Part shown: positions 3,019 through 37,224 of the stretch, in pieces | How the letters are laid out: every line of letters begins with the position of its first letter | How positions within the stretch are numbered: position 1 is the first letter of the stretch | Assembly (NCBI GenBank): GCA_910585035.1 | Contig: CAJUEF010000001.1 | Location: 81,846 to 126,127, forward strand | Source of the DNA: an uncultured Christensenellaceae bacterium | Lineage (GTDB): Bacteria > Bacillota > Clostridia > Christensenellales > MGBC116941 | Direction: 5' to 3' | Length of the DNA: 44,282 nt | Notes under the pieces: model-generated | Seen by the model: the letters and a program-made list of their open reading frames with translations, nothing else | Databases searched by the model: none | What the model was told of the DNA's origin: nothing | Translations under genes and position numbers: made by a program

Positions 3019-4110
3019 GTGGAATACAGCGATAATGACAAAATTATATTGTGGCTTTCCATGGGGCTGGGTATAGGATCTTTTAAGTTTTTTGATTTAA
3101 TGGATTACTACGGCGATATTGATGGGATTTGGCATAATTATGATGAAAAAGATCCGGGAATTGATTTTTTATCACCTAAAGTTAAAACTGCACTTGATAA
3201 AACAAAAAATATGAGTTATGTTAATAACTGTATTAAAAAATGGAAAGAACCAAAGTTTGTTACCATTTTAAACAATGATTATCCGATGCTGTTAAAAGAA
3301 ACAGCTAATCCGCCTATAATATTATATTATTTGGGAGAAATTAGCGCCTACGACAAATGTATAGGTATAGTTGGCAGCAGAAGGTGCACAAAATATGGAT
3401 TGGAATGCACAAAAAAATTTGCAAAAGACTTGGCTGTAAGGGGAATTACAATTGTGTCCGGCGGGGCAAGAGGAATAGATACTAAAGCCCATGAAGGGGC
3501 TGTGGAAGCCGGAGGAAGGACAGTTTGCGTTTTAGGATGTGGAATTGATGTGGTGTATCCTCCTGAAAATCATAAACTGTTTTATAATATTGCAGAAGGC
3601 GGAGGGGCAATAATAACAGAGTATCATCCCGGAGAAAGACCAAATCCGTGGCATTTTCCCCAGAGAAACCGCATAATAAGCGGTATGAGCAGTGGTCTTT
3701 TAGTTGTAGAGGCAGGAGAGAAAAGCGGCTCTCTTATAACAGCAGGCATTGCTGCAGAAGAAGGAAGAGATGTTTTTTGTGTTCCCGGAAATATCAATTC
3801 GAGTACAAGCAAAGGCACTAATACTCTTATTAAAAATGGAGCCTGTTTAGTTGATTGTTATCAGGATATAATGTTTGAGTGCGGCTGGCATGTAAAAGAA
3901 AAAAACAAAGCCTTAGCCATTGACAATTTTAATAATTTAAATGATACTGAAAGAACCGTTGTAAATGCAATTATAAAAAATCAAAATATTTCAATTGATG
4001 AGCTTTGTGTAATAACAGGGATTGATATTACAGAGCTTAACAGCGTGATTACAATGCTGGAAATAGGCGGCGTTATAAGCAGGATGCCGGGCAATATATT
4101 AACTATTTAG
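3019..4110 (+). CDS. dprA: DNA-processing protein DprA (Smf)
   Basis: Has the Rossmann-fold core IVGSRRCTKYG...SGGARGIDTKAHEGA...FPQRNRIISG and a C-terminal winged-helix region. GTG start. Lies upstream of topA, as is typical in Firmicutes. Confidence 0.9.
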   Translation: MEYSDNDKIILWLSMGLGIGSFKFFDLMDYYGDIDGIWHNYDEKDPGIDFLSPKVKTALDKTKNMSYVNNCIKKWKEPKFVTILNNDYPMLLKETANPPIILYYLGEISAYDKCIGIVGSRRCTKYGLECTKKFAKDLAVRGITIVSGGARGIDTKAHEGAVEAGGRTVCVLGCGIDVVYPPENHKLFYNIAEGGGAIITEYHPGERPNPWHFPQRNRIISGMSSGLLVVEAGEKSGSLITAGIAAEEGRDVFCVPGNINSSTSKGTNTLIKNGACLVDCYQDIMFECGWHVKEKNKALAIDNFNNLNDTERTVVNAIIKNQNISIDELCVITGIDITELNSVITMLEIGGVISRMPGNILTI

Positions 4111-4121
4111 TGGAGGGCTTT

Positions 4122-6212
4122 ATGGCTGCAAAAAAAGAAAAAAAACCTTATGAGCTGGTTATTGTGGAATCACCTGCCAAGGCTAAAACTATTGGGAAAA
4201 TCTTAGGCAGTAAATACAGGGTTATAGCGTCTCAGGGGCATGTAAGGGATTTACCTAAAAGCAGGCTTGCTGTTGATGTTGAAGGCGGATTTGAGCCTGA
4301 ATACATTAATATAAGGGGAAAAGCGCCTCTGCTTAAAGAAATAAAGAAAGAAGCCAAGAATGCAAAAAAGGTTTTTCTGGCAACCGACCCTGATAGAGAA
4401 GGAGAGGCTATATCCTGGCATATTGGCAATATAATTGAGGATAAAGACGCAAAGAGAATTGAATTTAATGAAATTACAAAATCTGCTATTCAAGAAGCAA
4501 TTAAGCATCCTCGGGATATTAATACCGGAAAAGTAAACGCTCAGCAGGCAAGAAGGGTGCTAGACAGGCTTGTTGGCTATAAGATAAGCCCTATTCTTTG
4601 GGAAAAGGTTAAAAAGGGTTTGAGCGCAGGAAGAGTTCAGTCTGTTGCTATGCGTATGATATGCGAGCTGGAGGAACAGATTGATAACTTTATTAGTGAA
4701 GAATACTGGTCGCTGGATGCAAAGCTTATGCCAAAGGGAAAGAAAAAAACTTTTACAGCTCACTATCATGGAGAAGGAAATAAAAAGGTAGACCTTAAGA
4801 CAAAAGAACAGGTTGATAAAATTATTAGTGAGCTAAAGGATTTTGTTGTTAAAGAGGTTAAGAAAGGCAATCTTAAAAAGCATGCCGCTGCTCCTTTTTC
4901 CACAAGCACAATGCAGCAGGACGCTTCGAGAAAGCTTGGTTTTTCCACTAAAAAAACCATGATGGTTGCGCAGCAGCTTTATGAAGGTGTGGAAATAAAG
5001 AAGAAAGGACACGTGGGTCTGGTATCTTATATAAGAACAGATTCCGTAAGAATATCCAAAGAAGCTCAAAGCGACGCTCTTGCATTTATTGAAGCGAACT
5101 TTGGGAACGATTATGTTCCGCAAAAGCCCAATATATATAAGGGAAGAAAAGGAGCTCAAGACGCTCATGAGGCTATCCGTCCTACCGATATAAAAATAAC
5201 TCCCGAAAGTATTAAAGATAGTCTTAATAAGGACCAGTTAAAGCTTTATACTCTTATATATAACAGGTTTTTATCCAGCCAGATGGCGGAAGCAAGATAC
5301 AGCACTATTAATACTACAATATTAAGCGGTAACCACGTGTTTAAGGCAGGTGGACAAAATTTAATATTTGACGGATATTTAATAGTTTATAATGAAGCGG
5401 ATAAAGAAAAGAAAAAGGAAACTATTCCTGAGTTAAATGAAGGCGACATGCTTGACCTTAATAAGGTTGTTCCCGAGCAGCATTTTACTCAGCCTCCGGC
5501 AAGATATACAGAGGCGAGCCTTGTGCGTGCGCTGGAGGAAAAGGGAATTGGCAGACCAAGCACATATGCTCCTACAATTTCCACTATATTTGAAAGGGGC
5601 TATATTACAAGAAAGGAAAAGTCAATTCAGCCTACAGAGCTTGGGAAAATAGTTACCAAGCTGATTGTGGACAATTTTTCCGATATTGTTAATATTGAAT
5701 TTACTGCGGATATGGAAGACGACCTGGATGAAATTGAATCAGGGGAAAAAGAATGGAAAAAGGTCATAGGTGATTTTTATGTTACCTTTAAAAAGCTTCT
5801 AGAGGATGCCGAGGTAGCTATTGAAAAAATAAAGATTGCAGATGAAGTTTCTGACGTTCCATGTGATAAATGCGGTGCTATGATGGTTTACAAAGTGGGA
5901 AAATACGGAAAGTTTCTTGCTTGTCCCAACTATCCTGAATGTAAAAACACAAAGCCTATAATGGTTACTATAGACGTACCTTGTCCAAAGTGTGGGGGAA
6001 AGGTGCTGAAGCTGAAAACAAAAAGAGGCAAGCCGTTTTACGGATGTGAAAAATATCCAAAGTGTGATTTCACTTCATGGTATTTGCCGACTGATAAAAA
6101 ATGTCCTACATGTGGTAAATACATGGTGGAAAAAAATGTTAAAGGCGGAACCCAAATTATTTGTTCCGATCCTGATTGTAAAACTTCACTGCAAAAGGAA
6201 AATAAAAAATGA
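4122..6212 (+). CDS. topA: DNA topoisomerase I
   Basis: Has a TOPRIM domain (LVIVESPAKAKTI, DPDREGE), the active-site region SYIRTDS and three C-terminal CxxC...CxxC zinc ribbons. ATG 4122 follows a GGAGGG ribosome-binding site. Confidence 0.95.
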   Translation: MAAKKEKKPYELVIVESPAKAKTIGKILGSKYRVIASQGHVRDLPKSRLAVDVEGGFEPEYINIRGKAPLLKEIKKEAKNAKKVFLATDPDREGEAISWHIGNIIEDKDAKRIEFNEITKSAIQEAIKHPRDINTGKVNAQQARRVLDRLVGYKISPILWEKVKKGLSAGRVQSVAMRMICELEEQIDNFISEEYWSLDAKLMPKGKKKTFTAHYHGEGNKKVDLKTKEQVDKIISELKDFVVKEVKKGNLKKHAAAPFSTSTMQQDASRKLGFSTKKTMMVAQQLYEGVEIKKKGHVGLVSYIRTDSVRISKEAQSDALAFIEANFGNDYVPQKPNIYKGRKGAQDAHEAIRPTDIKITPESIKDSLNKDQLKLYTLIYNRFLSSQMAEARYSTINTTILSGNHVFKAGGQNLIFDGYLIVYNEADKEKKKETIPELNEGDMLDLNKVVPEQHFTQPPARYTEASLVRALEEKGIGRPSTYAPTISTIFERGYITRKEKSIQPTELGKIVTKLIVDNFSDIVNIEFTADMEDDLDEIESGEKEWKKVIGDFYVTFKKLLEDAEVAIEKIKIADEVSDVPCDKCGAMMVYKVGKYGKFLACPNYPECKNTKPIMVTIDVPCPKCGGKVLKLKTKRGKPFYGCEKYPKCDFTSWYLPTDKKCPTCGKYMVEKNVKGGTQIICSDPDCKTSLQKENKK

Positions 6213-7510
6213 CAATAATTGTTATAGGAGGCGGTCTTGCTGGTTGTGAGGCTGCCTTACAGTTAGCAAAAAGAGGTTTTAAAGTTGATCTTTTTGAGAT
6301 GAAGCCTATAAAGAAATCACCGGCTCATTCCATGGATACTCTTTGTGAACTGGTATGCAGCAATTCTTTAAAATCCACAAAGCCTGATACTGCCGGAGGA
6401 CTTTTAAAGCTGGAAATGGACATACTTGGTTGTGAACTTTTAAAGTTTGCTTCAGATTGCGCCGTTCCTGCGGGAGGAGCACTGGCTGTTGACAGGGATG
6501 AATTTTCAAAGGCAGTTACAAAAGCTATAGAAAATGAGCCTAATATAAACATTGTTCATAAAATCGTCACGGATATTCCAAATTCACCTTGTATTATAGC
6601 AACAGGACCGCTGACGGAGGATAGCTTTGCAAAGGCTATAAAAAAAAGATTTGATTCTCTGTACTTTTTTGATGCGGCTTCGCCTATAATATCTAAAGAC
6701 AGCATAAATATGGATATTGTATACAGAGCAAACAGATATGAGGATATTGGCAGCGGAGATTATTTAAACTGTCCTATGAATAAAGAGGAATATGAAGCTT
6801 TTTATACGGAACTGATAAATGCCAATACTGTTGAGCTTCACGGATTTGAAACCGCTAGGGTGTTTGAAAGCTGTATGCCCGTTGAAGTAATGGCAAAAAG
6901 AGGGCGGGATACATTAAGATTTGGACCCCTTCGCCCTGTTGGGCTGACTGATTTAAGAACAGGTAAACGTCCTTATGCAGTGGTACAGCTCAGACAGGAG
7001 GATGTATATGGGAACAGTTATAATTTAGTTGGCTTTCAGACTAATCTTAAATTTCCTGAACAAAAAAGAGTGTTTTCAATGATACCGGGACTGGAAAACG
7101 CCGAGTTCCTAAGATACGGCGTAATGCATGCCAATACATATTTAAACAGTCCAAAATATTTGGATGAATTTTTCCGTGTAAAAGGCGAAAGTAACTTGTA
7201 TTTTGCCGGGCAGATTACGGGAGTGGAGGGCTATGTGGAATCCATCTTCAGCGGAATGATGGCAGGAATAAACATGGCGAGAACTTTGGAAGGCAAGGAT
7301 TTAAACCCGCTTCCTAAAGAATGTATAACCGGAGCTCTTTGCAAGCATGTTGCAGGAGGGTCAGGCAGTTCATCCTATCAGCCTATGAATGCAAATTTTG
7401 GAATTATTATTCCTCTTGGCAAAAGGATAAAAGATAAAAAAGAAAGATATATGGAGCAGAGCAAAAGATCTGTTTCAATTTTAAAAGAGAATCGGGGGAA
7501 GTACTTTTAA
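6209..7510 (+). CDS. trmFO: Methylenetetrahydrofolate--tRNA-(uracil-5-)-methyltransferase TrmFO (Gid)
   Basis: Has the FAD-binding motif [12 protein letters not shown], the TrmFO-type block ELVCSNSLK, and [12 protein letters not shown]. The topA-trmFO-hslVU order matches Bacillus. Confidence 0.93.
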
Positions 7511-8055
7511 TGGATGAAAAGAATATGTTAAGAGGCACTACTATAGTTGCAGTAAAGAAAAACGGAAAGACCGTTGTTGCGGGCGACGGTCAGGTGACCT
7601 TTGGCCAGGCTACAATTATGAAGCATGGTGCTAAAAAGGTTAGAAGAATTTATAAGGAAAAAATCGTGGTTGGTTTTGCCGGCTCTGTTGCAGATGCGTT
7701 TACCCTTTGCGACAGGTTTGAAGCAAAGCTGGAGCAATATAGCGGAAGTGTTGTTAGAGCTGCTGTTGAGCTTGCTCAGGAATGGAGAAGCGATAAGGTG
7801 CTTCGTAAGCTTGAGGCAATGCTTATTGTTGCAGATAAGGAAAATTTACTGGTGCTTTCCGGTACAGGTGAAGTGATAGAGCCGGATGACGGTGTTGTTG
7901 CTATTGGATCCGGAGGTAATTATGCAATGTCAGCCGCCCGTGCACTATATCGCAATACGGATATGGACGCTAAAGAAATTGCGCTGGAAGCTATGAAGAT
8001 AGCCAGTGAAATATGCGTGTATACTAACGGTAATTTTACCGTTGAGGAGGTTTAA
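7510..8055 (+). CDS. hslV: ATP-dependent protease subunit HslV (ClpQ)
   Basis: Has an N-terminal GTTIVAV proteasome-beta-like nucleophile region and a GSGGNYA motif. Its start overlaps the trmFO stop (TAATG). Confidence 0.93.
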
Positions 8056-8056
8056 T

Positions 8057-9451
8057 ATGAACTGCTTATCTGCTAAGGAAATTGTAAGCAAGCTGGACAG
8101 ATATATTATCGGACAGGACGAGGCAAAAAAAGCTGTTGCCATTGCCCTTAGAAACAGGTATAGACGAAGCCGGCTGAATGATGAAATCAGAAACGAAATA
8201 ACTCCGAAAAATATAATTATGGCGGGTCCAACGGGAGTTGGAAAGACGGAAATCGCAAGGAGGCTGGCAAAGCTTACAGGCTCGCCTTTTGTAAAGGTAG
8301 AGGCCACTAAGTTTACGGAAGTGGGATATGTTGGCAGAGATGTTGATTCCATTATTCGTGATTTGGTTGAAGCCAGTATACGAATGGTAAAAGAGGAAAT
8401 GTATGAAAAAGTAAAGCTTCAGGCGCAGACCAATGCCCATGAAAGGCTCATTGATTTGCTTTTACCTGTAAAACCAAAGCCAAAGGCGGAGCAAAATGAT
8501 TTTCAGGCAGCTCTTTATATGCTTCTTCCTGCCCAGGAAAAAAAGGAAGAACTGACAGACGAAGAAAAAAGAGAAAGACTTACAGCACGCCAGCAAATAG
8601 CTAAGCAGCTAAACGACGGTTTGCTGGAGGATACAATAGTATCTGTTGAGGTTGAGGCTCCACAGGTTATGGCTCTTGATGTTATGGGAGGCGTAGGCGC
8701 TGAAATAAACCTAGGAGATATGTTCTCGGGTATGATGCCTAAAAAAACCAAGAACCGCAAAGTTAAGGTAAGCGACGCACGGGTAATTTTAGAGCAGGAA
8801 GAAGCAAACAAGCTCATAGATATGGATGATGTTACGACGGAGGCAATAAAGAGAGCAGAGCAGCAGGGGATTGTGTTTCTTGATGAAATAGATAAAATTG
8901 CAGGTAAGGGCGGAGGCAGCGGTCCTGATGTATCCAGAGAGGGTGTGCAAAGAGATATTCTTCCTCTGGTTGAAGGCTCTACAATTATGACAAAATACGG
9001 ACCTATTAAAACAGATTTTGTGCTGTTTATCGCTGCCGGCGCTTTCCATGTTGCAAAATTCAGCGACCTTATTCCGGAACTTCAAGGCAGATTTCCTATT
9101 AAGGTAAACCTAAAAAGTCTCACAAAAGATGATATGGTGCAAATTCTCAGCAAAACGGACAATGCCATAATAAAGCAATATCAGTCACTTTTATCAGTGG
9201 ACAACATTGATCTTAAATTTACTGACGACGCTCTTGACGCTATTGGGGATTATGCAATTAACGCTAATGAGGAAAATGAAAACATAGGAGCCAGAAGGCT
9301 TCACTCTATAATTGAAAATCTGTTGGAGGATATTTCATTTAATGCGTGTGGAGACCATCCTATGATGGAAGTAATTATTGACGAAGGGTATGTGAGCTCC
9401 CATTTAACTGACGATTATAAAAAGCACAATTTAAAGAACAGCATACTGTAA
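8057..9451 (+). CDS. hslU: ATP-dependent protease ATPase subunit HslU (ClpY)
   Basis: Contains IVSKLDRYIIGQDEAKKAVAIALRNR, the Walker A motif GPTGVGKTEIARRLA, the Walker B motif GIVFLDEIDKI and GRFPI. I prefer ATG 8057 (MNCLSAKEIV) to the upstream ATG 8006, which lies inside hslV. Confidence 0.93.
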   Translation: MNCLSAKEIVSKLDRYIIGQDEAKKAVAIALRNRYRRSRLNDEIRNEITPKNIIMAGPTGVGKTEIARRLAKLTGSPFVKVEATKFTEVGYVGRDVDSIIRDLVEASIRMVKEEMYEKVKLQAQTNAHERLIDLLLPVKPKPKAEQNDFQAALYMLLPAQEKKEELTDEEKRERLTARQQIAKQLNDGLLEDTIVSVEVEAPQVMALDVMGGVGAEINLGDMFSGMMPKKTKNRKVKVSDARVILEQEEANKLIDMDDVTTEAIKRAEQQGIVFLDEIDKIAGKGGGSGPDVSREGVQRDILPLVEGSTIMTKYGPIKTDFVLFIAAGAFHVAKFSDLIPELQGRFPIKVNLKSLTKDDMVQILSKTDNAIIKQYQSLLSVDNIDLKFTDDALDAIGDYAINANEENENIGARRLHSIIENLLEDISFNACGDHPMMEVIIDEGYVSSHLTDDYKKHNLKNSIL

Positions 9452-9592
9452 GTTTATGCCTATAAATGCTTTAATGAATTAATAAAAATACAAAATTATT
9501 CTAAATAATCATTATTGAATATATTTTAATATTATATTTTAGGTAAATAATAATTGAAAATATCTGTGCAATTAGTGTAAACAGGTGTTTAT

Positions 9593-9628
9593 AAAAAAGA
9601 ATGACGCTTTTTCGGTCATTCTTTTTTT
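9593..9628 (+). terminator. Rho-independent terminator ending the hslVU transcription unit
   Basis: An 8-bp stem AGAATGAC (9598-9605) / GTCATTCT (9615-9622) is flanked by an A-run on the 5' side and TTTTTTT on the 3' side. Confidence 0.7.
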
Positions 9629-9637
9629 GTTTTAGGG

Positions 9638-9666
9638 TTTAAATATTTATAAATAAATGATATAAT
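9638..9666 (+). promoter_or_regulatory. Sigma-A-type promoter for the OLE RNA-oapA unit
   Basis: The -35-like TTTAAA (9638-9643) is separated by a 17-bp spacer from an extended -10 TGaTATAAT (9658-9666). It lies just after the hslU terminator and about 5-8 nt before the first helix strand of the structured RNA. Confidence 0.5.
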
Positions 9667-9670
9667 AACT

Positions 9671-10262
9671 AATACTGGTGGTGCAGTATCCTAGTCAGTA
9701 AAGTATTATTTGAAGGCGGGCCTAAAAATTCGTCAAAGGGCACATCGATGAAGTTCCTTGTGTTGGCTGCTGACGCCCAGTCGGGAGTCGATGCTGGGAG
9801 TTAAGAAAGGTGGGCGTTCCTCAATGGCATGAGGGTGATGACCCAGTTTTCGTGGAGACCTGTATGGGTGGATGAAATGTTTAATAAAGCAAATCTACTC
9901 AGCAGGATTAAACCTGCTATGCGGCGGCAAGCTGTGTACAGTGTAGCCTGTCTTGAGTGGTAACGTGCGAATGATGGAAGCACGGTTTATTATAACTGGT
10001 ACCTAAGTAGTAAAACGATTGCCATCTGAAACCGCTATTGCAAAAGAGACTAAGGTAATGCTGAGCTGTTGAGGAAAGCTCCTAGGCTGATTATTATGTG
10101 AAGATTATAGTGTAGATTTAAGGCAGTCCGGCCCTGCCTTTGGTAACAGGGCAGTATCGTCTTTAAAGAGAAATCGCTCCTTTCGGCGACGGGGAGTAGA
10201 TGGTGGGGAAAACCTACCGGACCATATTCTGCAAAGTTTATTCATGTAATACCACCACTATT
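9671..10262 (+). ncRNA. ole: OLE (ornate, large, extremophilic) RNA; boundaries approximate (about +/-15 nt)
   Basis: A roughly 590-nt ORF-free segment that is much more G+C-rich than its flanks: 30/60 G+C at 9721-9780 versus 4/60 at 9481-9540. A long-range closing helix pairs AATAcTGGTGGT (9671-9682) with ACCACCAcTATT (10251-10262). There are many local stems. It sits immediately upstream of a small multi-pass membrane protein followed by dxs-tlyA-nadK-argR-recN, the published OLE/oapA neighbourhood. Confidence 0.8.
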
Positions 10263-10299
10263 TTTTAGGAGTATTATTTTTACATATATATTTAAAATT

Positions 10300-10827
10300 A
10301 TGTCTAAAAAGAAAAATAAAAATAAATGGGTGGCAAAATCCATTGCGATAACTTTTGCTTTATCTTGCATATTCAGTGTAGGCGCTGAAATTTTAATGAA
10401 TATGAGCCCTACTTTTCTTGCTGTATTGGTTGTGCTTTTTATCATTTCTGTTGGAGTGGTTTTTGACATTATAGGAGTTGCTCTTGCGGCCGCCGATAAG
10501 CCGCGTTTTTATGCAATGGATTCAAAACGTGTGTATGCATCCAGGCAGTGTGTGTATATGGTTAAAAATGCAGATATTCTAAGTAACGTCTGCAACGATA
10601 TAATAGGAGATATCTGCGGCATTATAAGCGGCGCTTCAGGAGCTGTTATAGCCATAAGGCTTTCAACGGGAGAAAGCGCCAATGTATTAGCCGGAATTAT
10701 TGTAAGCGGAATAATTGCTGCTTTAACTGTTGGCGGAAAGGCATATGGAAAAAGTGTAGGTATGAAAAAAAGCAACGATATAGTCTTAATGGTTGGTAAA
10801 GGTCTTGCGTTTTTTGCAAGACGATAA
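10300..10827 (+). CDS. oapA: OLE-associated protein A (OapA), small multi-pass membrane protein
   Basis: The 175-aa product has a lysine-rich N-terminus and about four hydrophobic segments. A DIIG motif occurs twice (FDIIGVA and NDIIGDI). It lies directly between the OLE-like RNA and dxs. Confidence 0.75.
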   Translation: MSKKKNKNKWVAKSIAITFALSCIFSVGAEILMNMSPTFLAVLVVLFIISVGVVFDIIGVALAAADKPRFYAMDSKRVYASRQCVYMVKNADILSNVCNDIIGDICGIISGASGAVIAIRLSTGESANVLAGIIVSGIIAALTVGGKAYGKSVGMKKSNDIVLMVGKGLAFFARR

Positions 10828-10838
10828 CAGGTGATATA

Positions 10839-12695
10839 TTGAGTTATTTAGATGATATTAGCATTACAAAATTAAAAGGCATGAACAGAAATGAGCTGGA
10901 AAAGCTTGCAAAAGAAATAAGGCTTTTTCTTATTGATAAAGTGACAAGGACAGGCGGGCATTTAGCCAGCAACCTTGGCACTGTTGAGCTTACGCTTGCT
11001 CTTCATTATGTATTTGACAGCCCTTATGACAAGCTTTTGTTTGACGTTGGGCATCAGTCGTATACGCATAAAATTTTAACAGGCAGAAAAGACGGTTTTG
11101 ACAACCTAAGGCAGTATGGAGGGATATCAGGCTTTCCAAGACCTGATGAGAGTGAGCATGATATTTTTTCAATGGGACATGCCAGTAATGCAATTTCTGT
11201 AGCAGCGGGAATGGCAAAAATAAGAGACCTTAGAGAGCAAGATTATTCTATAGTTGCCGTTATCGGTGACGGGGCTTTATCAGGTGGAATGGCTATGGAA
11301 GCCATAAATGATGCAGGCTACAGCAAAAATAAAATAATAGTTGTGCTCAATGACAATGAAATGTCTATTGCAAAAAATGTTGGCGCAATGGCCGGTTTTC
11401 TTGGCAAAATGAGGACTATTAAAACTTACACCGCTTTTAAAAGAAGTATAAGCAATATTATAATTCGGATACCGTTAATTGGAAGGTATTTAAAAGAAAC
11501 CATATCCCGCATGAAAAACAGAATTAAGTATTTGCTTTTGCCCACGCATTTTATTGAAGAAATGGGATTTACTTATATTGGAATTTTAGATGGTCATGAT
11601 ATAGATTCTTTAATAGATTCTTTAAAGGATGCTAAGAATAGCGAAGTTTCAGTTTTACTTCACATAAAAACCGTAAAGGGCTGTGGCTGTGAAATGGCAG
11701 AAAAATTTCCTGAGGATTTTCACGGTGTTTCATCCAATCATTTTAGCAGGGAAAAAGGTGCAAAGCCTAGCAATGGCAAAATATTTGTAAATAAGCTTAT
11801 TGAAATGGCAAGGGCAGATTCAAAAATATGCGCCATAACTGCCGCAATGCCCCATGGAACAGAGCTGATACATTTTGAAGAAGAGTTTCCGGAAAGATTT
11901 ATGGATGTGGGTATTGCTGAGCAGCACGCAGTTACCCTGGCTGCAGGAATAGCCTGTGGCGGCGGGAAACCTTATTTTGGCGTGTATTCAACATTTTTGC
12001 AAAGGGCATACGACCAGATATTTCATGATGTGTGTTTGCAAAATCTGCCTGTTACACTGGTGATTGACAGGGCGGGTCTTGTTGGCAATGACGGTGAAAC
12101 TCACCACGGGGTATTTGACCTTAGTTATCTCCGTCCTCTTCCGGGGATGACAATTATGGCGCCGGCAACAGGAAAAGAGCTTGAGGAAATGCTGGAACTT
12201 TCACATGACATGAAAGGTCCTTGCGCTATTAGGTATTCCAAAGTAAATTTTGATTTGGATTATGATATGCCAACAGCTTTTGGGAAATGGAAAGTTTTAC
12301 GAGAAATAAAACCTGTAACTATTGTGGCTGTGGGAAATATGGTGAAAAAAGCTATAGCGGTAAGCGATGCTTTAAAGGAAAGTTATGGAATTGAACTTGG
12401 AGTTGTAAATGCTTGTTTTGTAAAGCCGATGGATGATGAAATGATAGAAAAATTGTCTGTATGTCAGCATATTTTTACTATTGAAGACAATGTTGTTAAA
12501 GGCGGATTTGGCAGCGGCTTACTTGAAGCTTTTGCAAAAATAAATTCTAAGACAATGGTTAGTATGTATGGCGTGCCGGACAGATTTATAACCCATGGCA
12601 ATGTTGATGAATTAATGAAAGAAATTGGCTTGGATACACAAGGTATTAAAAACAGGATTTTAGATGAACTGGAGATAAAACATGACGAGGCTTGA
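10839..12695 (+). CDS. dxs: 1-deoxy-D-xylulose-5-phosphate synthase
   Basis: Contains GGHLASNLGTVELTLALHYVF, DVGHQSYTHKILTGR and the ThDP motif GDGALSGGMAMEA...NDN, plus transketolase-like C-terminal domains. TTG start. Confidence 0.95.
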   Translation: MSYLDDISITKLKGMNRNELEKLAKEIRLFLIDKVTRTGGHLASNLGTVELTLALHYVFDSPYDKLLFDVGHQSYTHKILTGRKDGFDNLRQYGGISGFPRPDESEHDIFSMGHASNAISVAAGMAKIRDLREQDYSIVAVIGDGALSGGMAMEAINDAGYSKNKIIVVLNDNEMSIAKNVGAMAGFLGKMRTIKTYTAFKRSISNIIIRIPLIGRYLKETISRMKNRIKYLLLPTHFIEEMGFTYIGILDGHDIDSLIDSLKDAKNSEVSVLLHIKTVKGCGCEMAEKFPEDFHGVSSNHFSREKGAKPSNGKIFVNKLIEMARADSKICAITAAMPHGTELIHFEEEFPERFMDVGIAEQHAVTLAAGIACGGGKPYFGVYSTFLQRAYDQIFHDVCLQNLPVTLVIDRAGLVGNDGETHHGVFDLSYLRPLPGMTIMAPATGKELEEMLELSHDMKGPCAIRYSKVNFDLDYDMPTAFGKWKVLREIKPVTIVAVGNMVKKAIAVSDALKESYGIELGVVNACFVKPMDDEMIEKLSVCQHIFTIEDNVVKGGFGSGLLEAFAKINSKTMVSMYGVPDRFITHGNVDELMKEIGLDTQGIKNRILDELEIKHDEA

Positions 12696-13464
12696 TGTTT
12701 TCCTTGTTGAAAATGGGTATTTTGAATCGAGGGAAAAGGCGAAAACAGAAATAATGTGCGGGAATGTGCTTGTTGATGAAAAACGTCTTAAAGCTAGTGA
12801 CAAGGTTAAAGATGGATGCAATATCCGAATAATAAAACAAATGCCCTTTGTTTCAAGGGGCGGATATAAACTTGACAAGGCGATAAAGGTTTTTGATCTT
12901 GATTTTAATGGCGTAACGGCAATAGATATTGGCGCTTCGACAGGCGGTTTTACAGATGTGATGCTGCAAAATGGAGCAAAAAAGGTTTATTCAGTTGATG
13001 TAGGATACGGACAGCTCCATTATAAGCTTAGAAACGATAAACGTGTAGTGAGCATGGAGCGCTGTAATGCACGAAATCTTACAAACAAAGAGTTTTCTGA
13101 AAAAGCAGATTTTGTTACTATGGATGTTTCCTTTATATCTATACTATTAATCTTTCCGGTGCTTAAGGATGTTTTGAATGAACATGGAAAAGTGGTAGCC
13201 CTTATTAAGCCCCAGTTTGAAGCAGGCAGAGAGCAGGTTGGGAAAAACGGAGTTATAAGAGATAAAAAGGTGCATATACAGGTGATACACAATGTTATTG
13301 ACGGTGCGAAAAAAATCGGTCTTCATTGTGAGGGACTTGACTATTCTCCAATAAAAGGTCCTGAGGGAAATATAGAGTTTATTTCAATTTTTGGCTTTAA
13401 TGATGAAGGCTTTGAGCCGGATATTAATTTTGTGGTTGAAAACGCTCATAATAATAAATTTTAG
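12682..13464 (+). CDS. tlyA: TlyA family rRNA (cytidine-2'-O)-methyltransferase (hemolysin A-like)
   Basis: Has an N-terminal S4 domain (RLDVFLVENGYFESREKAK) and the FtsJ-like SAM motif DIGASTGGFTD. Overlaps the dxs stop by 14 nt. Confidence 0.9.
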   Translation: MTRLDVFLVENGYFESREKAKTEIMCGNVLVDEKRLKASDKVKDGCNIRIIKQMPFVSRGGYKLDKAIKVFDLDFNGVTAIDIGASTGGFTDVMLQNGAKKVYSVDVGYGQLHYKLRNDKRVVSMERCNARNLTNKEFSEKADFVTMDVSFISILLIFPVLKDVLNEHGKVVALIKPQFEAGREQVGKNGVIRDKKVHIQVIHNVIDGAKKIGLHCEGLDYSPIKGPEGNIEFISIFGFNDEGFEPDINFVVENAHNNKF

Positions 13465-13473
13465 TGGTGTTTA

Positions 13474-14289
13474 ATGAAAGTATTATTATTTGTAAATGTT
13501 AAAAAAGATAAGGATATGTCTCTTTCATCTGAAATAATTAATTGTATGAAGAAAAAGGACGTTGAATATAAGGTTTTTAAAGCTGACAGTGACCAGTCAA
13601 CCGTGTTGCTTTCAGATTTAAACAATATGGACGCTGTTATAGTTCTTGGAGGAGACGGAACTATGCTTCATGCAATTAGAGAGGTATCAAGAACAGGTAT
13701 TCCTGTTTTTGGAGTAAATATAGGACACCTTGGTTTTTTAACAGAGATAGATTACAAAAACTTTGCTAAAGCTCTGGATAAAATAATTGACCACGATTAT
13801 TATATTGAAGAACGTATGCTTCTTAAGACACACGATAGTAAAGAAATTGAGAGGCTGGCAGTTAATGATATATGTGTTATTAATCATGAGCCGGGGAAAA
13901 TTATTTCTCTTTCAGTTTTTGTAAACGGAAATTTTGTCGAAAGATTTTCAGGTGACGGCATAATTGTATCCAGTCCTACGGGATCTACGGGATATTCAAT
14001 GTCTGCCGGTGGACCTATTGTGTCACCTATGGCAAGCTGTATTATAGTTACTCCTATATGCGCTCACTCTCTCACATCAAAACCCTTGGTTTTATGCGAT
14101 ACAGATAAGATTAAGATAGAGGTGGAGGAGGATAAAAAGGGACTTGCCATTTTAGATGGACAAAGCAAAATAGATATTAATGATATATGTGTAGAAAAAA
14201 GCGATTACAAAGCAAAATTTATAAGATTTAAAGAGTATAATTTTTTTGATGTTTTATCAAAAAAGTTTAATAATAATATTGGTAAGTAA
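13474..14289 (+). CDS. nadK: NAD(+) kinase
   Basis: Contains the GGDGTML motif, NxGxLGFL, and the C-terminal PTGSTGYSMSAGGPIV block. Confidence 0.93.
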   Translation: MKVLLFVNVKKDKDMSLSSEIINCMKKKDVEYKVFKADSDQSTVLLSDLNNMDAVIVLGGDGTMLHAIREVSRTGIPVFGVNIGHLGFLTEIDYKNFAKALDKIIDHDYYIEERMLLKTHDSKEIERLAVNDICVINHEPGKIISLSVFVNGNFVERFSGDGIIVSSPTGSTGYSMSAGGPIVSPMASCIIVTPICAHSLTSKPLVLCDTDKIKIEVEEDKKGLAILDGQSKIDINDICVEKSDYKAKFIRFKEYNFFDVLSKKFNNNIGK

Positions 14290-14300
14290 GGGGGATGCTT

Positions 14301-14750
14301 ATGAAAACCAACAGGCACACGGTAATACTTGATATTATCAATTCTATGGATATTGATACTCAGGAAGAATTGGCTATTGAGCTTGCCAGACGCGGATTTA
14401 AGGTTACACAAGCAACTATTTCAAGGGATATTAAGGAGTTAAGACTTATAAAGGTTCTGGCTTCAAGCGGAAGCTATAAATATGCAACGGTTGACAGGGC
14501 TGAGGTTGCTCTCTTTGATAGGTATGTTAAAATTTTTGCCCAGTCTGTGCTGTCAATAATTCCATGTGGAAACCTTATTGTGCTTAAAACCATTTCGGGC
14601 AGCGCTAATGTGGCTGCAGAAGCGATTGATGCTCTTAAATGGTCTGAGGTTGCCGGCACAATCGCCGGGGATAACACCATATTTGTGTGTATTATAAATC
14701 AGGATAAGGTTTTGGAAATTGCGGAAAAATTCAAAGAATTGATAAGGTAG
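14301..14750 (+). CDS. argR: Arginine repressor ArgR/AhrC
   Basis: Has a winged-helix N-terminus (TQEELAIELARRGFKVTQATISRDIKEL) and a C-terminal oligomerisation domain with the GTIAGDNTIF motif. ATG 14301 is better spaced from the GGGGGA ribosome-binding site than ATG 14295. Confidence 0.9.
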   Translation: MKTNRHTVILDIINSMDIDTQEELAIELARRGFKVTQATISRDIKELRLIKVLASSGSYKYATVDRAEVALFDRYVKIFAQSVLSIIPCGNLIVLKTISGSANVAAEAIDALKWSEVAGTIAGDNTIFVCIINQDKVLEIAEKFKELIR

Positions 14751-14756
14751 ATTTAT

Positions 14757-16433
14757 ATGCTTTTGGCTTTAGATATTAAAGGCTTTGCGTTAATTGACAA
14801 GCTATATATTGAATTTGAAAATGGTCTTAATATAATTACCGGTGAAACAGGAGCCGGTAAATCTATCGTTGTGGATTCCATAAACTTTGTGCTTGGCTTA
14901 AAGTTTTCCAAAGATATTGTGAAAAAGGGAATGGAAAAGGCAGAGGTAAATGCTGTATTTGATTTATCCGATTCCCAAATACAATTTGTAAAGTCAATGG
15001 GCTTTGAATGCAATGAGAGCACTGTAAATGTTTTTAGGAGCATAAATCTTTCATCTAAATCTATATGCAGGTTTAACGGAAAAATTATTACGCTGTCTAA
15101 TTTAAGGCAGCTTTCCAGCGCATTTATGGAAGTTCATGGACAGCATGAAAATCAGGCTCTTTTTAATGAAGCTACGCATATTGATTTTTTAGATAGCTTC
15201 GTGTTTAAAGATGATTGCAGCTGTAAAAATGATTTTAATAAGGAATTCGCCGATTTTAGAGATTTTAGAAATAAAATAATAGATGATAAAATGGATGGCA
15301 AAACCATTCATACACATCTTAATCTTATTAAAGAGCAGCTAAAAGAATTTGAAATCCTCAGATGGCAAGAAGGGGAGGAACAGCAGTTAAAAGAGCAGGC
15401 AAAAGCCATGGAAAACATGGAGGCTGTTACAAAGAATTTAAATGTGTCATATAATTTGCTTTATGGCAGTGAAAACTGTGTTTATGAGCAGTTAGAGCAG
15501 GTTGTGGGCGCCCTGGAAAATATTAAGGATTTAAATGATACATACAAGCAGTTGTCTGAAAGAATTTCATCCTTATATTATGATCTGGAAGATATAGTTG
15601 AAGGGGTTAGGAGAGAAAAAAACAGCTTTGATTTTACTCCTGAAAAACTTGAAGAAATACAAAAGAGACTGTTTGAATTTTCCAGACTTAAAAAGAAATA
15701 TGCCAAAGATGAAAAAGAAATACTGGAGCATTTTAAAAAGCTTAAAGAGGAAGAAAATGAATTGGAATATAAGCTTTCTAATGCCAAAGAGTTAAGAGAG
15801 AAGCTTAAAGAGCTTTATAAAGCCGCTGTTGTAAGCGCTAAAAGATTATCTGCAATTCGCAAAAAAGGAGCCATTCCTTTGGAAAACGAGATTGTAAAGC
15901 ACTTAAATGATTTGGGAATGAAAAATGCTAATTTTAAGGTTGGATTTGAAGATAAAGACTTAAATTCAAAGGGTATAGATGCAGTGGAATTTTTATTTTG
16001 TGCTAATAAAGGACAAGACTTAAAGCCTCTTAACAAGGTTGCGTCCGGTGGTGAGATTTCACGGCTTATGCTGGCGCTGAAAAATGTTGATCTTAATTCT
16101 TCTCTTGCAGATGCAATGGTTTTTGATGAAATTGACACAGGAATAAGCGGCAAAATGGCTCAGGCTGTTGCCGTTAAGCTTGCAAATATTGCAGGAAAAA
16201 ACCAGGTTATATGTGTTACGCACTTGCCACAAGTTGCAGCTATGGGTGATGTTAATATATTTATATCCAAAACAGAAAAGGATTTGGATACTGTAATAAA
16301 AGCAGAGAGGCTTAATGGGGAAGGAAAGGTTGCTGAAGTAGCGCGCCTTATAAGCGGCAGTGATATTTCAAAGTCGGGAATTATGCATGCAAATCAGCTG
16401 ATAGATGAAAGTAAAGAATTTAAAAAAAGATAG
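14757..16433 (+). CDS. recN: DNA repair protein RecN
   Basis: Has an SMC-like N-terminal Walker A motif (ITGETGAGKSIVVDSI), a long coiled-coil, the ABC signature ASGGEISRLMLAL and the Walker B motif MVFDEIDTGISG. Confidence 0.95.
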   Translation: MLLALDIKGFALIDKLYIEFENGLNIITGETGAGKSIVVDSINFVLGLKFSKDIVKKGMEKAEVNAVFDLSDSQIQFVKSMGFECNESTVNVFRSINLSSKSICRFNGKIITLSNLRQLSSAFMEVHGQHENQALFNEATHIDFLDSFVFKDDCSCKNDFNKEFADFRDFRNKIIDDKMDGKTIHTHLNLIKEQLKEFEILRWQEGEEQQLKEQAKAMENMEAVTKNLNVSYNLLYGSENCVYEQLEQVVGALENIKDLNDTYKQLSERISSLYYDLEDIVEGVRREKNSFDFTPEKLEEIQKRLFEFSRLKKKYAKDEKEILEHFKKLKEEENELEYKLSNAKELREKLKELYKAAVVSAKRLSAIRKKGAIPLENEIVKHLNDLGMKNANFKVGFEDKDLNSKGIDAVEFLFCANKGQDLKPLNKVASGGEISRLMLALKNVDLNSSLADAMVFDEIDTGISGKMAQAVAVKLANIAGKNQVICVTHLPQVAAMGDVNIFISKTEKDLDTVIKAERLNGEGKVAEVARLISGSDISKSGIMHANQLIDESKEFKKR

Positions 16434-16445
16434 TTAATAATTTTA

Positions 16446-16700
16446 TTCTTCTTCTCTTTTAGAAAAAAGAGAAGAAGCAAGAGAAAACCAATGACGACAT
16501 AAGGGACTTTTTGAAATATATAAAAGCTACTTTCAAAAGGACATTATCGTTAAATAGCTTTTCCTTTTAACATTTAGAAAAAGAAGAAGCAGGAGAAAAC
16601 CAATGACAATATTAAAAGGCTTTTTAAAATTGTAAAAGGTTATTGTCAAAGAGGTTTTCTTTTTGTTTACTTTTTCTTTTTTAAAAGAAAAAGTAAAATA
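16446..16700. repeat. Degenerate tandem direct repeat (period about 112 bp) with homopyrimidine/homopurine hairpins
   Basis: The 25-nt cores at 16471-16495 and 16583-16607 are identical at 24 of 25 positions, and about 50 nt of looser similarity follows each. There are 13-bp hairpins at CTTCTTCTCTTTT/AAAAGAGAAGAAG (16448-16477) and TTTACTTTTTCTT/AAGAAAAAGTAAA (about 16666-16697). Confidence 0.7.
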
Positions 16701-16800
16701 TGTTTCAAATAAAAATTAAGAAAAATATAGCTCAAATTACAGAATAAAAATTTCTTTTTTTTATCACAATAATATCATCATATGATAGGTGGTTATTTTA

Positions 16801-18048
16801 ATGAAAAAGAAATTTTTAAATATTTGTGCAGCATTGTTTTTTGCTCTTGGAATATTTGTGCAGGCGTCAGGAATTGGAAATATTCCCGATACTTTAAATA
16901 TTTCTTATGGACAGAGCAAGTTATTAAAAATTGGAAGCTCTATATCATTAAGCCCTGCCAGTGAAAGTGTTCTTCAGCTATCCTCTGAAAACGGGGCGGA
17001 TAAAAACATTGAAATTGTTCCTAAACAAACGGGTGAAACTGAGCTTAATGTAAATGTTTTTGGTGTTAAGGTAAAAAGTGTAAAGGTCAATGTACACGGA
17101 CCAAGAGAGGTAATTGTTGGCGGACAGAGCATTGGGGTGGCCCTTTATACCAAGGGAGCCCTTATAGTCGGAACGTCTAATTTAAGAGATGAAAACGGGA
17201 ATACTGTAAATCCGGCAAAGGATGCGGGATTAAAATCCGGTGACGTAATTGAAAAGGTAAACGGAGTGGAGATAAAAGATGCGGACCACGTTATGTCAAT
17301 TATAAATAACGTAACGGTAAGCGGCGCCCCTGTTACTATAGATATATTAAGAGATGGACAAAGACAAAGCGTTGAGGTAACTCCAGTAAAAGATAATGCT
17401 GACGGAGCTTACAGAATGGGTATATGGGTGAGAGACAGTATGGCAGGTGTTGGCACAATGAGCTTTTACAATCCGGCAACCAAGAAATTTGCAAGTCTGG
17501 GACATGCCGTTTATGACAGTGATACAAATACCCTTCTTAATTTAAAGAGCGGTGAAATAGTTGAATCTGAAATATTTGGTATAAAACAAGGCCAGGAGGG
17601 CAGCCCCGGCGAATTGCAGGGCAGCTTTGATTCAAATAAACCGAAAATAGGCAGCATTGTTACAAACAATGATTTTGGAATTTACGGAGAATTATACAGT
17701 GAGCCTGAAAAAAGCGAATATAATAAAATTATGGAAACTGCGACAATTGACGAAACAACGGTGGGACCTGCGAAAATACTCACAACTATAGACGGCACCG
17801 GCGTTAAAGAATATGATATATATATAGAAAAACTGTCAAATCAAGAGTATCCAAGTACGAAGAGCATGGTTATTAAAGTAACGGATAAAGAATTGCTTGC
17901 AAAAACCGGAGGAATCATACAGGGTATGAGCGGCAGCCCGATAATACAAAACGGCAAGGTTGTCGGAGCTGTTACTCATGTTTTTGTAAATGATCCGACA
18001 AAGGGATACGGTCTTTATGCGCAATGGATGCTGGAGCAAATGGAATAG
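16801..18048 (+). CDS. spoIVB: Stage IV sporulation signalling serine peptidase SpoIVB (S55)
   Basis: Has a signal/anchor N-terminus, a PDZ domain (GLKSGDVIEKVNGVEI) and the S55 catalytic region with GMSGSPI. The recN-spoIVB-spo0A synteny supports the call. ATG 16801 follows a GGTGG ribosome-binding site. Confidence 0.9.
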   Translation: MKKKFLNICAALFFALGIFVQASGIGNIPDTLNISYGQSKLLKIGSSISLSPASESVLQLSSENGADKNIEIVPKQTGETELNVNVFGVKVKSVKVNVHGPREVIVGGQSIGVALYTKGALIVGTSNLRDENGNTVNPAKDAGLKSGDVIEKVNGVEIKDADHVMSIINNVTVSGAPVTIDILRDGQRQSVEVTPVKDNADGAYRMGIWVRDSMAGVGTMSFYNPATKKFASLGHAVYDSDTNTLLNLKSGEIVESEIFGIKQGQEGSPGELQGSFDSNKPKIGSIVTNNDFGIYGELYSEPEKSEYNKIMETATIDETTVGPAKILTTIDGTGVKEYDIYIEKLSNQEYPSTKSMVIKVTDKELLAKTGGIIQGMSGSPIIQNGKVVGAVTHVFVNDPTKGYGLYAQWMLEQME

Positions 18049-18059
18049 GCGGTATTTAT

Positions 18060-18683
18060 ATGATTGGTCTTTATATTGAGGATGAAGGGTTAAAAAGCGA
18101 GCTGGAAAAACGGCTTAAAAATACAGGGTGTTTTTTATGTAACGGATATAGTCCTAAGCTTGATTTAATTATAGTTCAGGGCAAGGATAAAGGGACAATG
18201 GACACACTTATTATGAGTGAAACCAATGTTATATTAATTGCTGAATGCGGCTCCGACCCCTATATAAATCTGTGTTATTATTCATTTATTAAGCCTTTAT
18301 GTACCCATACTTTGCTGACTTTAATAAAAGGTATGGATATTGAGGAAAAGGATTATTCCCATATCTCATCTGAGTTGTTTTTGGATTTAGGTGTTTCACC
18401 AGGCGTGAAAGGATATGGTTATTTAAAAGATGCGGTGAATTTGCACTTAAATCACGAGGATTATCAGATAAAGGATATTTATGAGCTTATTGGTTTATAT
18501 AGAAACACAGATGCTAAAAATGTGGAACGGAGCATAAGATATGCAATAGAGTCTGCTTTTGACAAATGCAGGATAGAGAGCCAGGAAAGAATTTTTAAAA
18601 ATTCAATAGACCCTCTTAAAGGAAAACCGACTAATATGGAACTTATCTACAGAGTTGGGGATTTTATAAAAATCGGGAAATAG
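18060..18683 (+). CDS. spo0A: Spo0A-like sporulation transcription factor with a degenerate, shortened receiver domain
   Basis: The C-terminal half matches the Spo0A DNA-binding domain (GVSPGVKGYGYLKDAV, NVERSIRYAIESAF, KGKPTNMELIYRVGDF). The N-terminal roughly 95 aa resemble a CheY fold, but DLIIVQ stands where Spo0A has DVLVLD. It occupies the syntenic spo0A position after spoIVB. Confidence 0.8.
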   Translation: MIGLYIEDEGLKSELEKRLKNTGCFLCNGYSPKLDLIIVQGKDKGTMDTLIMSETNVILIAECGSDPYINLCYYSFIKPLCTHTLLTLIKGMDIEEKDYSHISSELFLDLGVSPGVKGYGYLKDAVNLHLNHEDYQIKDIYELIGLYRNTDAKNVERSIRYAIESAFDKCRIESQERIFKNSIDPLKGKPTNMELIYRVGDFIKIGK

Positions 18684-20512: not shown

Positions 20513-20650
20513 ATGAAACATATTAAAGTTATTAAATCATGCAGCTTAGAAAAAAGAAGCGGATGCGGCGAGTGCCAGTCATCATGTCAGTCTGCCTGCA
20601 AGACATCATGTACAGTGGCAAATCAATCTTGTGAGAGAAAAGAGCAGTAA
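20513..20650 (+). CDS. scfA: SCIFF (six-cysteines-in-forty-five) ranthipeptide precursor
   Basis: Not in the ORF track. The 45-codon translation is MKHIKVIKSCSLEKRSGCGECQSSCQSACKTSCTVANQSCERKEQ. It carries the hallmark GCGECQ-SCQSACKTSCTV-NQSC core and sits immediately upstream of a radical-SAM/SPASM enzyme. Confidence 0.88.
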   Translation: MKHIKVIKSCSLEKRSGCGECQSSCQSACKTSCTVANQSCERKEQ

Positions 20651-20665
20651 AAGCTGCTCTTTTTA
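20641..20665 (+). terminator. Intercistronic hairpin plus T-run (partial terminator/attenuator) between scfA and scfB
   Basis: The stem AGAGCAG (20641-20647) / CTGCTCT (20654-20660) spans the scfA stop codon and is followed by TTTT. The scfB ribosome-binding site TAGGAGA and ATG 20684 lie downstream. Confidence 0.5.
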
Positions 20666-20683
20666 CTTGTTTAGGAGAAAAAT

Positions 20684-36784: not shown

Positions 36785-36880
36785 AACTCATTTATTATAA
36801 TATAAATGGGTTTTTATAATAAAAAGTGCAATTTATAAAAACATAAATTGCAAAAATGTATATCCTTTTCATAATTTTTA

Positions 36881-36909
36881 TTGCAATAACAGTAATTTGA
36901 TGTTATCAT
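36881..36909 (+). promoter_or_regulatory. Sigma-A-type promoter for gatCAB
   Basis: TTGCAA (36881-36886) is separated by a 17-bp spacer from TGtTATCAT (extended -10 ending at 36909). The GAAGGAGG ribosome-binding site and ATG 36938 lie downstream. Confidence 0.45.
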
Positions 36910-36937
36910 AAAAGAATATTGAAGGAGGTAAACAGCA

Positions 36938-37210: not shown

Positions 37211-37224
37211 GGCGGTGAAGGAAA

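Follow-up and report, generated by a model that had tools for sequence, protein, structure and literature searches.

A predicted full-length OLE RNA gene and its partner gene oapA behind hslVU in an uncultured member of the Clostridia

We analysed a 44,282-nt stretch of DNA from an uncultured Christensenellaceae bacterium (contig CAJUEF010000001.1 of assembly GCA_910585035.1, positions 81,846 to 126,127; called the window below), in which a gap of 848 bp (9452-10299) lies between the end of hslU at 9451 and the start of the next coding sequence at 10300. The OLE (ornate, large, extremophilic) RNA has been known since 2006 and is catalogued in Rfam, and the original prediction, made from the letters of the window, had assigned the gap to an OLE RNA and the gene that follows to its membrane partner OapA. 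This assignment is supported by the covariance model, by the downstream protein and by the order of the genes, and we conclude, with a probability of about 0.9, that the gap encodes an OLE RNA of ~590-600 nt and that the next gene encodes OapA. The gene content of the window, including spoIVB, spoIIM, a spo0A-like gene and a SCIFF system, fits Bacillota/Clostridia, and the names of the nearest relatives agree.

The size of the gap and its contrast in base composition were reproduced as first described, with 30 of 60 positions being G or C at 9721-9780 against 4 of 60 at 9481-9540. Over the whole OLE segment the G+C content is 274/610 (45%), compared to 39/210 (19%) in the spacer on its 5' side and 37% in the entire window. 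The gap is also the only large one in the window that is free of genes, the next true gap measuring 355 bp. Two apparent gaps were rejected on inspection: one of 440 bp at 36785-37224 holds gatC, and the apparent gap at the 3' end is occupied by priA, which extends beyond the contig.

The whole window was scanned against all 4227 Rfam families at their curated thresholds, and a single match was obtained, to OLE (RF01071) on the forward strand. The match scored 440.4 bits (E = 3.4e-126; gathering score 50) and covered model positions 1-616 of 616 without truncation, so that the covariance-model check of the original prediction gave a full-length match far above the gathering score. Of the 159 base pairs in the model, 153 are present in the window and 137 of these 153 are standard. 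OLE was present in 2,822 Bacillota genomes in one survey, and variants without P7 and P8 have been described (PMC11332333). The predicted window RNA is full-length, since P7, P8 and, in P13, the OapB site are all present, which excludes the reduced variants of Fernando and Breaker 2024.

Support for the fold was examined in an alignment that is independent of the one in Rfam. A reference set of 80 loci encoding OapA relatives, one genome per species, was drawn from among the matches listed; the best of these was 48% identical, and the species of the window itself was absent among them. OLE was located in the 80 loci by nhmmer, and 71 complete copies from other Bacillota were aligned with the window copy, giving 72 RNAs. 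As controls, the pairing partners were either shuffled (500 shuffles) or slid. When the Rfam structure together with P1 was laid on this alignment, 84.4% of cells were paired, compared to 67.7 +/- 0.3% for shuffled and 40-47% for slid partners. Both sides had changed in 136 of 164 pairs, and none of the 500 shuffles reached the observed value in any of five measures; helices 20-23 were 87-93% paired. About 100 columns are invariant across the 72 RNAs, among them the stretches GCAGUAU, CUAGUC, CCUAAAAAU, GGGCACAUCGAUGAAG, GCCCAG, AAUGGCAU, GUAGCCUG and GCAAAAGAG.

Close relatives of the window, obtained by exact-protein look-ups, allowed the same question to be asked over a shorter evolutionary distance. 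Three of them (L009, L090 and L092) carry full-length OLE RNAs that score 436-440 bits and are ~88% identical to that of the window. In these comparisons 35-39 base pairs differ, of which 24-31 are still standard and 6-11 are double compensatory changes, and substitutions affect 13-14% of the paired positions but only 5.5-6.4% of the unpaired ones. This pattern of compensatory change together with conserved single strands argues for a structured RNA that is functional and whose unpaired bases matter for that function, and against a decaying relic.

The original prediction had described a 12-bp long-range helix closing the segment, and four local stems within it. The complementarity of the closing strands, 9671-9682 AATACTGGTGGT and 10251-10262 ACCACCACTATT, holds except for one C-C mismatch, and the helix is P1, lengthened in this RNA; its twelfth pair (9682-10251) was rejected, however, as it clashes with the consensus helix 10092-10102/10241-10251, and the extent first given was therefore not exact. 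The inner 6 bp of P1 (9676-9681/10252-10257) are paired in 83-97% of the family, with GC, AU, UA and CG as alternatives. For the outer 5 bp the paired share of the 72 RNAs falls to 42-62%, and these pairs are therefore best viewed as an extension in the lineage of the window. The four local stems (9743-9748/9788-9793, 9901-9906/9913-9918, 9964-9968/9980-9984 and 10120-10126/10134-10140) are indeed perfectly complementary in the window, but they do not belong to the conserved OLE fold. Their pairing across the family (63.2% of cells) is that of shuffled partners (62.7 +/- 0.5%), and each of them uses bases that are paired elsewhere by a covarying consensus helix.

Helix numbers beyond P1 were taken from text descriptions in the literature (PMC12265935) and assigned by position. 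A candidate P2 contains one covarying pair (UA in 42 RNAs, CG in 22, UG in 8 and unpaired in none), and its support is weak because the other pairs hardly vary. A further long-range helix, absent from the Rfam consensus structure, consists of 9696-9699/10065-10068 and 9702-9711/10053-10062, that is, 14 bp (4 + 10) with a small internal loop. It is paired in 81.8% of cells (64.8 +/- 1.0% for shuffled partners) and has a covariation of 0.587 (shuffled, 0.287); 0 of 500 shuffles equalled it. The helix is placed between P2 and P4 on its 5' side and directly after P9 on its 3' side, and by its position it would fit the description of P3/P3.1. Two cryo-electron microscopy (cryo-EM) studies suggest that P3/P3.1 spans the membrane, for which ~14 bp are said to be needed (PMC12265935); as far as the dimers of Clostridium OLE (Wang et al. 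2025) are described in that source, the window has a long enough helix at this place. An initial candidate for P3 (CUAGUC 9691-9696 with GACUAA 10048-10053) has conserved bases, and was rejected since it crosses the covarying helix 9702-9711/10053-10062 and overlaps the base of P9.

Several elements of the RNA correspond to contacts known from other species. The GNRA loop and the bulged U in P13 are determinants of OapB binding (PMC7936274). Conserved strands at 9735-9753 and 9801-9804 flank P5, and the strands that form the kink-turn there are identical to the family consensus; they include bases of the OapC kink-turn in H. halodurans (Halalkalibacterium/Bacillus) (PMC9723947). P4 is a dimer contact in cryo-EM structures (PMC12265935). 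With reference to the OLE dimers of C. acetobutylicum and C. botulinum (cryo-EM, PMC12286853), all four dimer contact elements are present in the window at the level of sequence, namely the A-rich P4 loop, the complementary loops of P5.1 and P6.1 and the palindromic loop of P9. The AUGGCA loop of P6.1 is complementary to the GCCCA loop of P5.1 and is a candidate kissing partner in the dimer.

The palindrome at the tip of P9 deserves separate mention. It is GGCC in 62 of the 72 RNAs, AGCU in five and GGAUCC in one (L043), and the region is absent in two; GGUACC occurs in only two, that of the window and that of its relative L009. For the dimers of Clostridium OLE, a switch among GGCC, GAUC and AGCU has been reported as evidence for an intermolecular kissing loop (Kretsch et al., PMC12286853). 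GGUACC differs from these reported forms, and as a palindrome two bases longer it fits the kissing-loop model and adds a minor extension to it.

The gap also contains the signals expected of a gene that is transcribed separately. A strong terminator after hslU, as originally proposed, is borne out by its 13-bp stem followed by a run of T, by its folding energy (-13.7 kcal/mol, z = -4.56) and by a shuffle test in which 0 of 200 sequences folded equally well; a simple scanner overlooked it on account of the loop, which measures 9 nt. A promoter scan likewise recovered the extended -10 promoter, in which 17 nt separate TTTAAA from TATAAT and the TG lies at -15/-14. As the -10 box ends at 9666, transcription is predicted to start at ~9672-9674, at the foot of P1. 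A box resembling TATAAT with no more than one mismatch is found 3-16 nt before P1 in 49 of the 72 OLE loci, 35 of which also have the upstream TG, and many of the remaining loci have such a box a few bases further off. An extended -10 promoter directly before P1 is common across the OLE family. In B. halodurans, the proximal promoter raised OLE expression >100-fold and the 5' ends lay at the start of P1 (PMC3413148), and the separate transcription that had been proposed for the window RNA is plausible in the light of this experiment.

At the 3' end, no local hairpin terminator was detected in the spacer between OLE and oapA (-1.8 kcal/mol, z = +1.2), and no convincing terminator was found in the region scanned from oapA to the end of recN. 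With no convincing terminator among the genes dxs to recN, ole-oapA-dxs-tlyA-nadK-argR-recN probably form one transcription unit. Runs of T occur within 14 nt after P1 in 30 of the 72 OLE loci compared to 17 of 72 in the following 14 nt, and several other loci have a G+C-rich hairpin directly after OLE. Such U/T runs and hairpins after P1 suggest a defined, possibly leaky, 3' end of OLE, and partial termination at P1 is possible in the window as well.

The gene downstream begins 29 nt past the end of the Rfam match. Members of its family sit directly after OLE in ~72 of the 80 reference loci, and for this reason we consider it to be oapA. The protein has 296 homologues at E <= 0.001, some of which carry PF01595, the membrane domain of CNNM proteins, or bear the name 'CorB'. 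Across 32 aligned homologues C98, N99, D100, G103, D104, C106 and G107 are invariant (C-N-D-x-x-G-D-x-C-G); DxxxD is a distinctive feature of OapA, and CNNM domains are without it (PMC11332333). An AlphaFold model (predicted local distance difference test score, pLDDT, 80.8) has long helices at residues 7-35, 38-64, 91-123 and 129-156, with which the hydrophobic segments coincide. When this model was compared with the PDB using Foldseek, the six best matches were membrane domains of CNNM/CorB/CorC proteins (7M1T, 7M1U, 7CFG, 7CFF) with probabilities of 0.99-1.00 and query-normalised template-modelling scores (TM-scores) of 0.50-0.59, and all others had a probability of <=0.18. For OapA of H. 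halodurans, 7M1U is likewise a top structural match (PMC11332333). Along the sequence, Lys and Arg residues cluster at 3-13, 67-89, 147-157 and 167-175.

By every sequence-level feature used in the literature (position, helices, DxxxD and a CNNM-like predicted fold), the 175-aa protein thus agrees with the identification originally made. It shares with described OapA proteins its place after ole, four helices of transmembrane type, the DxxxD motif and MtCorB (7M1T/7M1U) as the best structural match, and it likewise has basic residues at the ends of helices. At 175 aa it is shorter than most homologues (~190-215 aa), lacking the N-terminal extension of ~25 residues and the basic C-terminal tail of many homologues from Clostridia, and it shares 37-49% identity with homologues from other clades. 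With CNNM/CorB/CorC/MpfA proteins, which combine PF01595 with a CBS pair and CorC_HlyC, it shares the predicted fold of the membrane domain; in contrast to OapA with its DxxxD and four helices, CNNM domains have no DxxxD and CorB has three helices (PMC11332333). A CorB/MpfA-type Mg2+ transporter was rejected as an identity for the window protein, which lacks CBS and CorC_HlyC domains and, at its length, could not accommodate them. A Shine-Dalgarno sequence at the usual distance is missing upstream of oapA, where AGGAG occurs only at 10268-10272, 27 nt ahead of the ATG; even so, relatives conserve the N-terminus MSKKKNKNKW. The coordinates of the features are collected in Table 1.

Table 1. Features of the OLE locus and its surroundings; positions are those of the window, and helices other than P1 and P13 were named by their place in the RNA where so marked.
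Feature	Position	Strand	Remarks
topA, trmFO, hslV, hslU	4110..9451	+	unusual upstream neighbours; hslU 8057-9451 (TIGR00390, 597 bits)
Intrinsic terminator after hslU	9593..9628	+	A6-GAATGAC / GTCATTC-T7
Extended -10 promoter	9638..9666	+	-35 TTTAAA 9638-9643, TG 9658-9659, -10 TATAAT 9661-9666
OLE RNA gene (RF01071), full length	9662..10271	+	likely mature RNA ~9672-10262
P1, 5' arm	9671..9681	+	pairs with 10252-10262
P1, 3' arm	10252..10262	+	followed by U6 run 10260-10265
Candidate P2	9687..9694 (UAUCCUAG) with 10082-10089 (CUAGGCUG)	+	88% paired
P3/P3.1 (by position), 5' strand	9696..9711	+	pairs with 10053-10068
P3/P3.1 (by position), 3' strand	10053..10068	+	pairs with 9696-9711
P4 (by position), hairpin	9715..9734	+	A-rich loop CCUAAAAA; 97.7% paired in family
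P5/P5.1 (by position), 20-bp hairpin	9754..9800	+	loop GCCCA (9775-9779); 94.9% paired
P6/P6.1 (by position), hairpin	9805..9851	+	loop AUGGCA (9824-9829); Rfam match, covariation
P7 (by position), variable short hairpin	9859-9906	+	several non-standard pairs
P8 (by position), variable short hairpin	9914-9941	+	several non-standard pairs
P9 (by position), long composite stem	9950..10050	+	apical loop UGGUACCU (9997-10004), palindrome GGUACC
P13, hairpin	10134..10154	+	GNRA loop GUAA (10143-10146), bulged U10139
P14.1, second GNRA loop GCGA	10186-10189	+	Rfam match
oapA	10300..10827	+	175 aa, four long hydrophobic helices, motif CNDIIGDICG (D100, D104)
dxs, tlyA, nadK, argR, recN	10839..16433	+	canonical genes downstream of ole-oapA

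The order dxs-tlyA-nadK-argR-recN downstream of oapA was confirmed, and it is the usual order in the 80 reference loci. The gene dxs follows oapA in 55 of 75 loci, and among the 67 loci with enough downstream sequence tlyA was found in 57, argR in 51, recN in 54 and nadK in 34, with all five genes present in 26. In the window, recN is followed by spoIVB and the spo0A-like gene. The upstream side is different. The isoprenoid gene ispA (polyprenyl synthetase) is the first or second gene before OLE in 45 of the 62 loci with enough sequence, usually preceded by xseB, xseA and then folD or nusB, whereas hslU, hslV or topA was found upstream of OLE in 0 of the 80 loci. The original remark that the window departs from the xseAB-ispA arrangement is therefore correct. 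The hslU-OLE junction recurs in five other assemblies with an identical OapA (L002-L006), in L009 (OapA 83% identical) and in L092 (78%), and because of this recurrence in independent assemblies we do not regard it as an assembly artefact. In L090 (OapA 77% identical) a homoserine dehydrogenase gene lies upstream of OLE instead. What borders the ole block upstream thus differs even among members of this clade, whereas its downstream side stays the same.

Compared to the OLE locus of H. halodurans, the window shares the helices, the bases invariant in our alignment, the GNRA loop and bulge of P13 and the strands flanking P5, as well as oapA directly downstream, a proximal promoter starting at P1 and the genes dxs, tlyA, argR and recN. 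It differs in having topA-trmFO-hslV-hslU upstream rather than (nusB/folD)-xseA-xseB-ispA, in a P1 extended to 11 bp and in the hairpin missing at model positions 424-435. The host is also different, being an uncultured low-G+C member of the Clostridia, known here from sequence alone, and not an alkaliphilic Bacillus.

Other observations were made on the reference loci and on the genes around ole. A gene of the DUF212 family (divergent PAP2, membrane phosphatase-like) lies between ispA and ole in seven loci (L011, L023, L024, L045, L048, L060 and L066), and is another membrane- or isoprenoid-related neighbour of ole. In two loci OLE and the oapA homologue are 1.1-1.8 kb apart: L034 (5652-6217 and 8001), which is labelled Bacteroidaceae, and L082 (2865-3430 and 4558), labelled Bacilli. 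Three loci (L034, L035 and L039) bear Bacteroidota names with Bacillota-type content, and are probably binning errors. Further downstream in the window, the spacer between recN and spoIVB (16434-16788) contains a direct repeat with a period of ~112 nt, whose 74-nt copies (16466-16539 and 16578-16651) are 72% identical and each fold into hairpins, and also, at 16666-16697, an inverted repeat of 15 nt that is perfect. The two halves fold with z = -3.3 and -4.1, and the Rfam scan of the window gave no match there. The spo0A-like gene (18024-18683) encodes 219 aa with a clear Spo0A C-terminal DNA-binding domain at residues 117-211. Residues 1-116 gave no match to a receiver domain even at E <= 5, the NCBIfam Spo0A score was 68.6 against a cut-off of 200, and the N-terminus may be a degenerate or pseudo-receiver. 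A SCIFF system at 20513-22036 comprises the gene for a short six-cysteine peptide (MKHIKVIKSCSLEKRSGCGECQSSCQSACKTSCTVANQSCERKEQ) followed by a radical SAM maturase (TIGR03974, 583 bits), with a 12-bp terminator-like hairpin between the two at 20637-20664.

Certain results weigh against the identification of the locus or against any account of its function. The 16 non-standard model pairs lie mostly in P7, P8 and the tip of P9, which are the most variable hairpins, and one small model hairpin (positions 424-435) is deleted. The protein gave no match in Pfam (E <= 0.001) or NCBIfam, no chain was matched in a profile search of PDB sequences with the OapA family, and its link to CNNM proteins rests on homologues and a predicted fold with modest TM-scores. 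The host is known from metagenome assemblies only, and any mechanism for OLE would be drawn by analogy with the model species.

The terminator is predicted to end the hslU transcript, and from the extended -10 promoter transcription would begin at the foot of P1. By analogy with H. halodurans and with the Clostridium cryo-EM structures, OLE would be made in large amounts from this promoter, with some read-through supplying oapA-dxs-tlyA-nadK-argR-recN. Two OLE RNAs would dimerise, OapA dimers would bind alongside the P3 stems and anchor the particle in the cell membrane, and OapB, OapC and probably bS21 would complete it, with OapA supplying a CNNM-like module for handling or sensing ions. Going by published work, the OLE particle would aid cells exposed to stress from alcohol, cold, Mg2+ or the carbon source (PMC12265935, PMC11332333). 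A role as a membrane-embedded sensor and regulator for membrane and divalent-cation stress (short-chain alcohols, cold, excess Mg2+, poor carbon sources) is the account that we favour, with some reserve.

Other explanations of the locus have to be set against this role. The conserved unpaired bases could form the active site of a ribozyme that carries out some reaction at the membrane, with OapA as a mere anchor. The size and complexity of OLE and its ~25% of near-invariant bases do resemble those of large ribozymes (PMC11332333, PMC12265935), and within the clade of the window unpaired positions evolve more slowly than paired ones. Yet dimer contacts and protein sites already account for many of these bases, B. 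halodurans showed no products of splicing or processing (PMC3413148) and no catalytic activity has been reported in ~20 years, and we regard a ribozyme as rather unlikely. It is hardly credible that the segment has no function in this lineage, whether as a relic in decay, a G+C-rich spacer arisen by chance or an unannotated coding region. The deleted hairpin and the 16 non-standard pairs might be taken that way, but these pairs sit in parts that are variable or absent in other functional OLE RNAs (PMC11332333), the E value against the model is 3.4e-126, and the relatives retain full-length matches of 436-440 bits with OapA proteins only 77-83% identical, compensatory changes and conserved unpaired bases. 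A 60-aa open reading frame on the minus strand (9801-9983) could likewise be cited for a coding region; it is short and lies inside covarying helices, and was treated as due to chance.

The remaining alternatives place the function of OLE in cis. As a structured leader of ~630 nt, OLE might mainly control or localise the expression of oapA-dxs-tlyA-nadK-argR-recN, for example by tethering the nascent message to the membrane, and the lack of a hairpin terminator between OLE and oapA, or of a convincing one before the end of recN, would suit such a leader, as would the position of the only strong TG-motif promoter of the region before OLE and the linkage of ole to its downstream genes in most loci. 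In B. halodurans, however, one OLE species is seen, which is abundant, very stable and transcribed from a promoter of its own, and OLE works with OapA when the two are moved to a distant locus (PMC3413148). The hairpins after OLE in several loci and the U6 run in the window also suggest a defined 3' end, and the conserved elements for protein binding and dimerisation fit a free particle, and a mainly cis-acting OLE therefore appears very unlikely. A related proposal, which we consider unlikely, is that OLE is the obligatory 5' part of a long transcript, whose folding and capture by OapA would set the read-through into genes of isoprenoid synthesis, NAD and DNA repair. With the promoter at P1 and only the U run after P1 as a leaky stop, such coupling in cis would come on top of the role in trans. 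If true, it would explain why the downstream order is conserved although the genes upstream can vary (hslVU in the window, a homoserine dehydrogenase gene in L090 and ispA in most loci).

The locus is already known in kind, being a typical full-length OLE with canonical downstream neighbours. What is new in it is minor (hslVU as the upstream context, a lengthened P1, the absence of a small hairpin, the loop GGUACC and an OapA of reduced length) and leaves the function of OLE no more testable, since the host is uncultured; to the question of that function the locus adds little. It does have value for annotation, as pipelines leave ole blank, call oapA a 'hypothetical protein' and misname its homologues 'CorB'. 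GGUACC adds a further independent example that agrees with the kissing contact between molecules observed by cryo-EM. Finally, the ole-oapA-dxs block need not stay with xseAB-ispA and can sit behind hslVU under a promoter of its own, which argues that any functional link of OLE runs to the genes downstream and not to those upstream.

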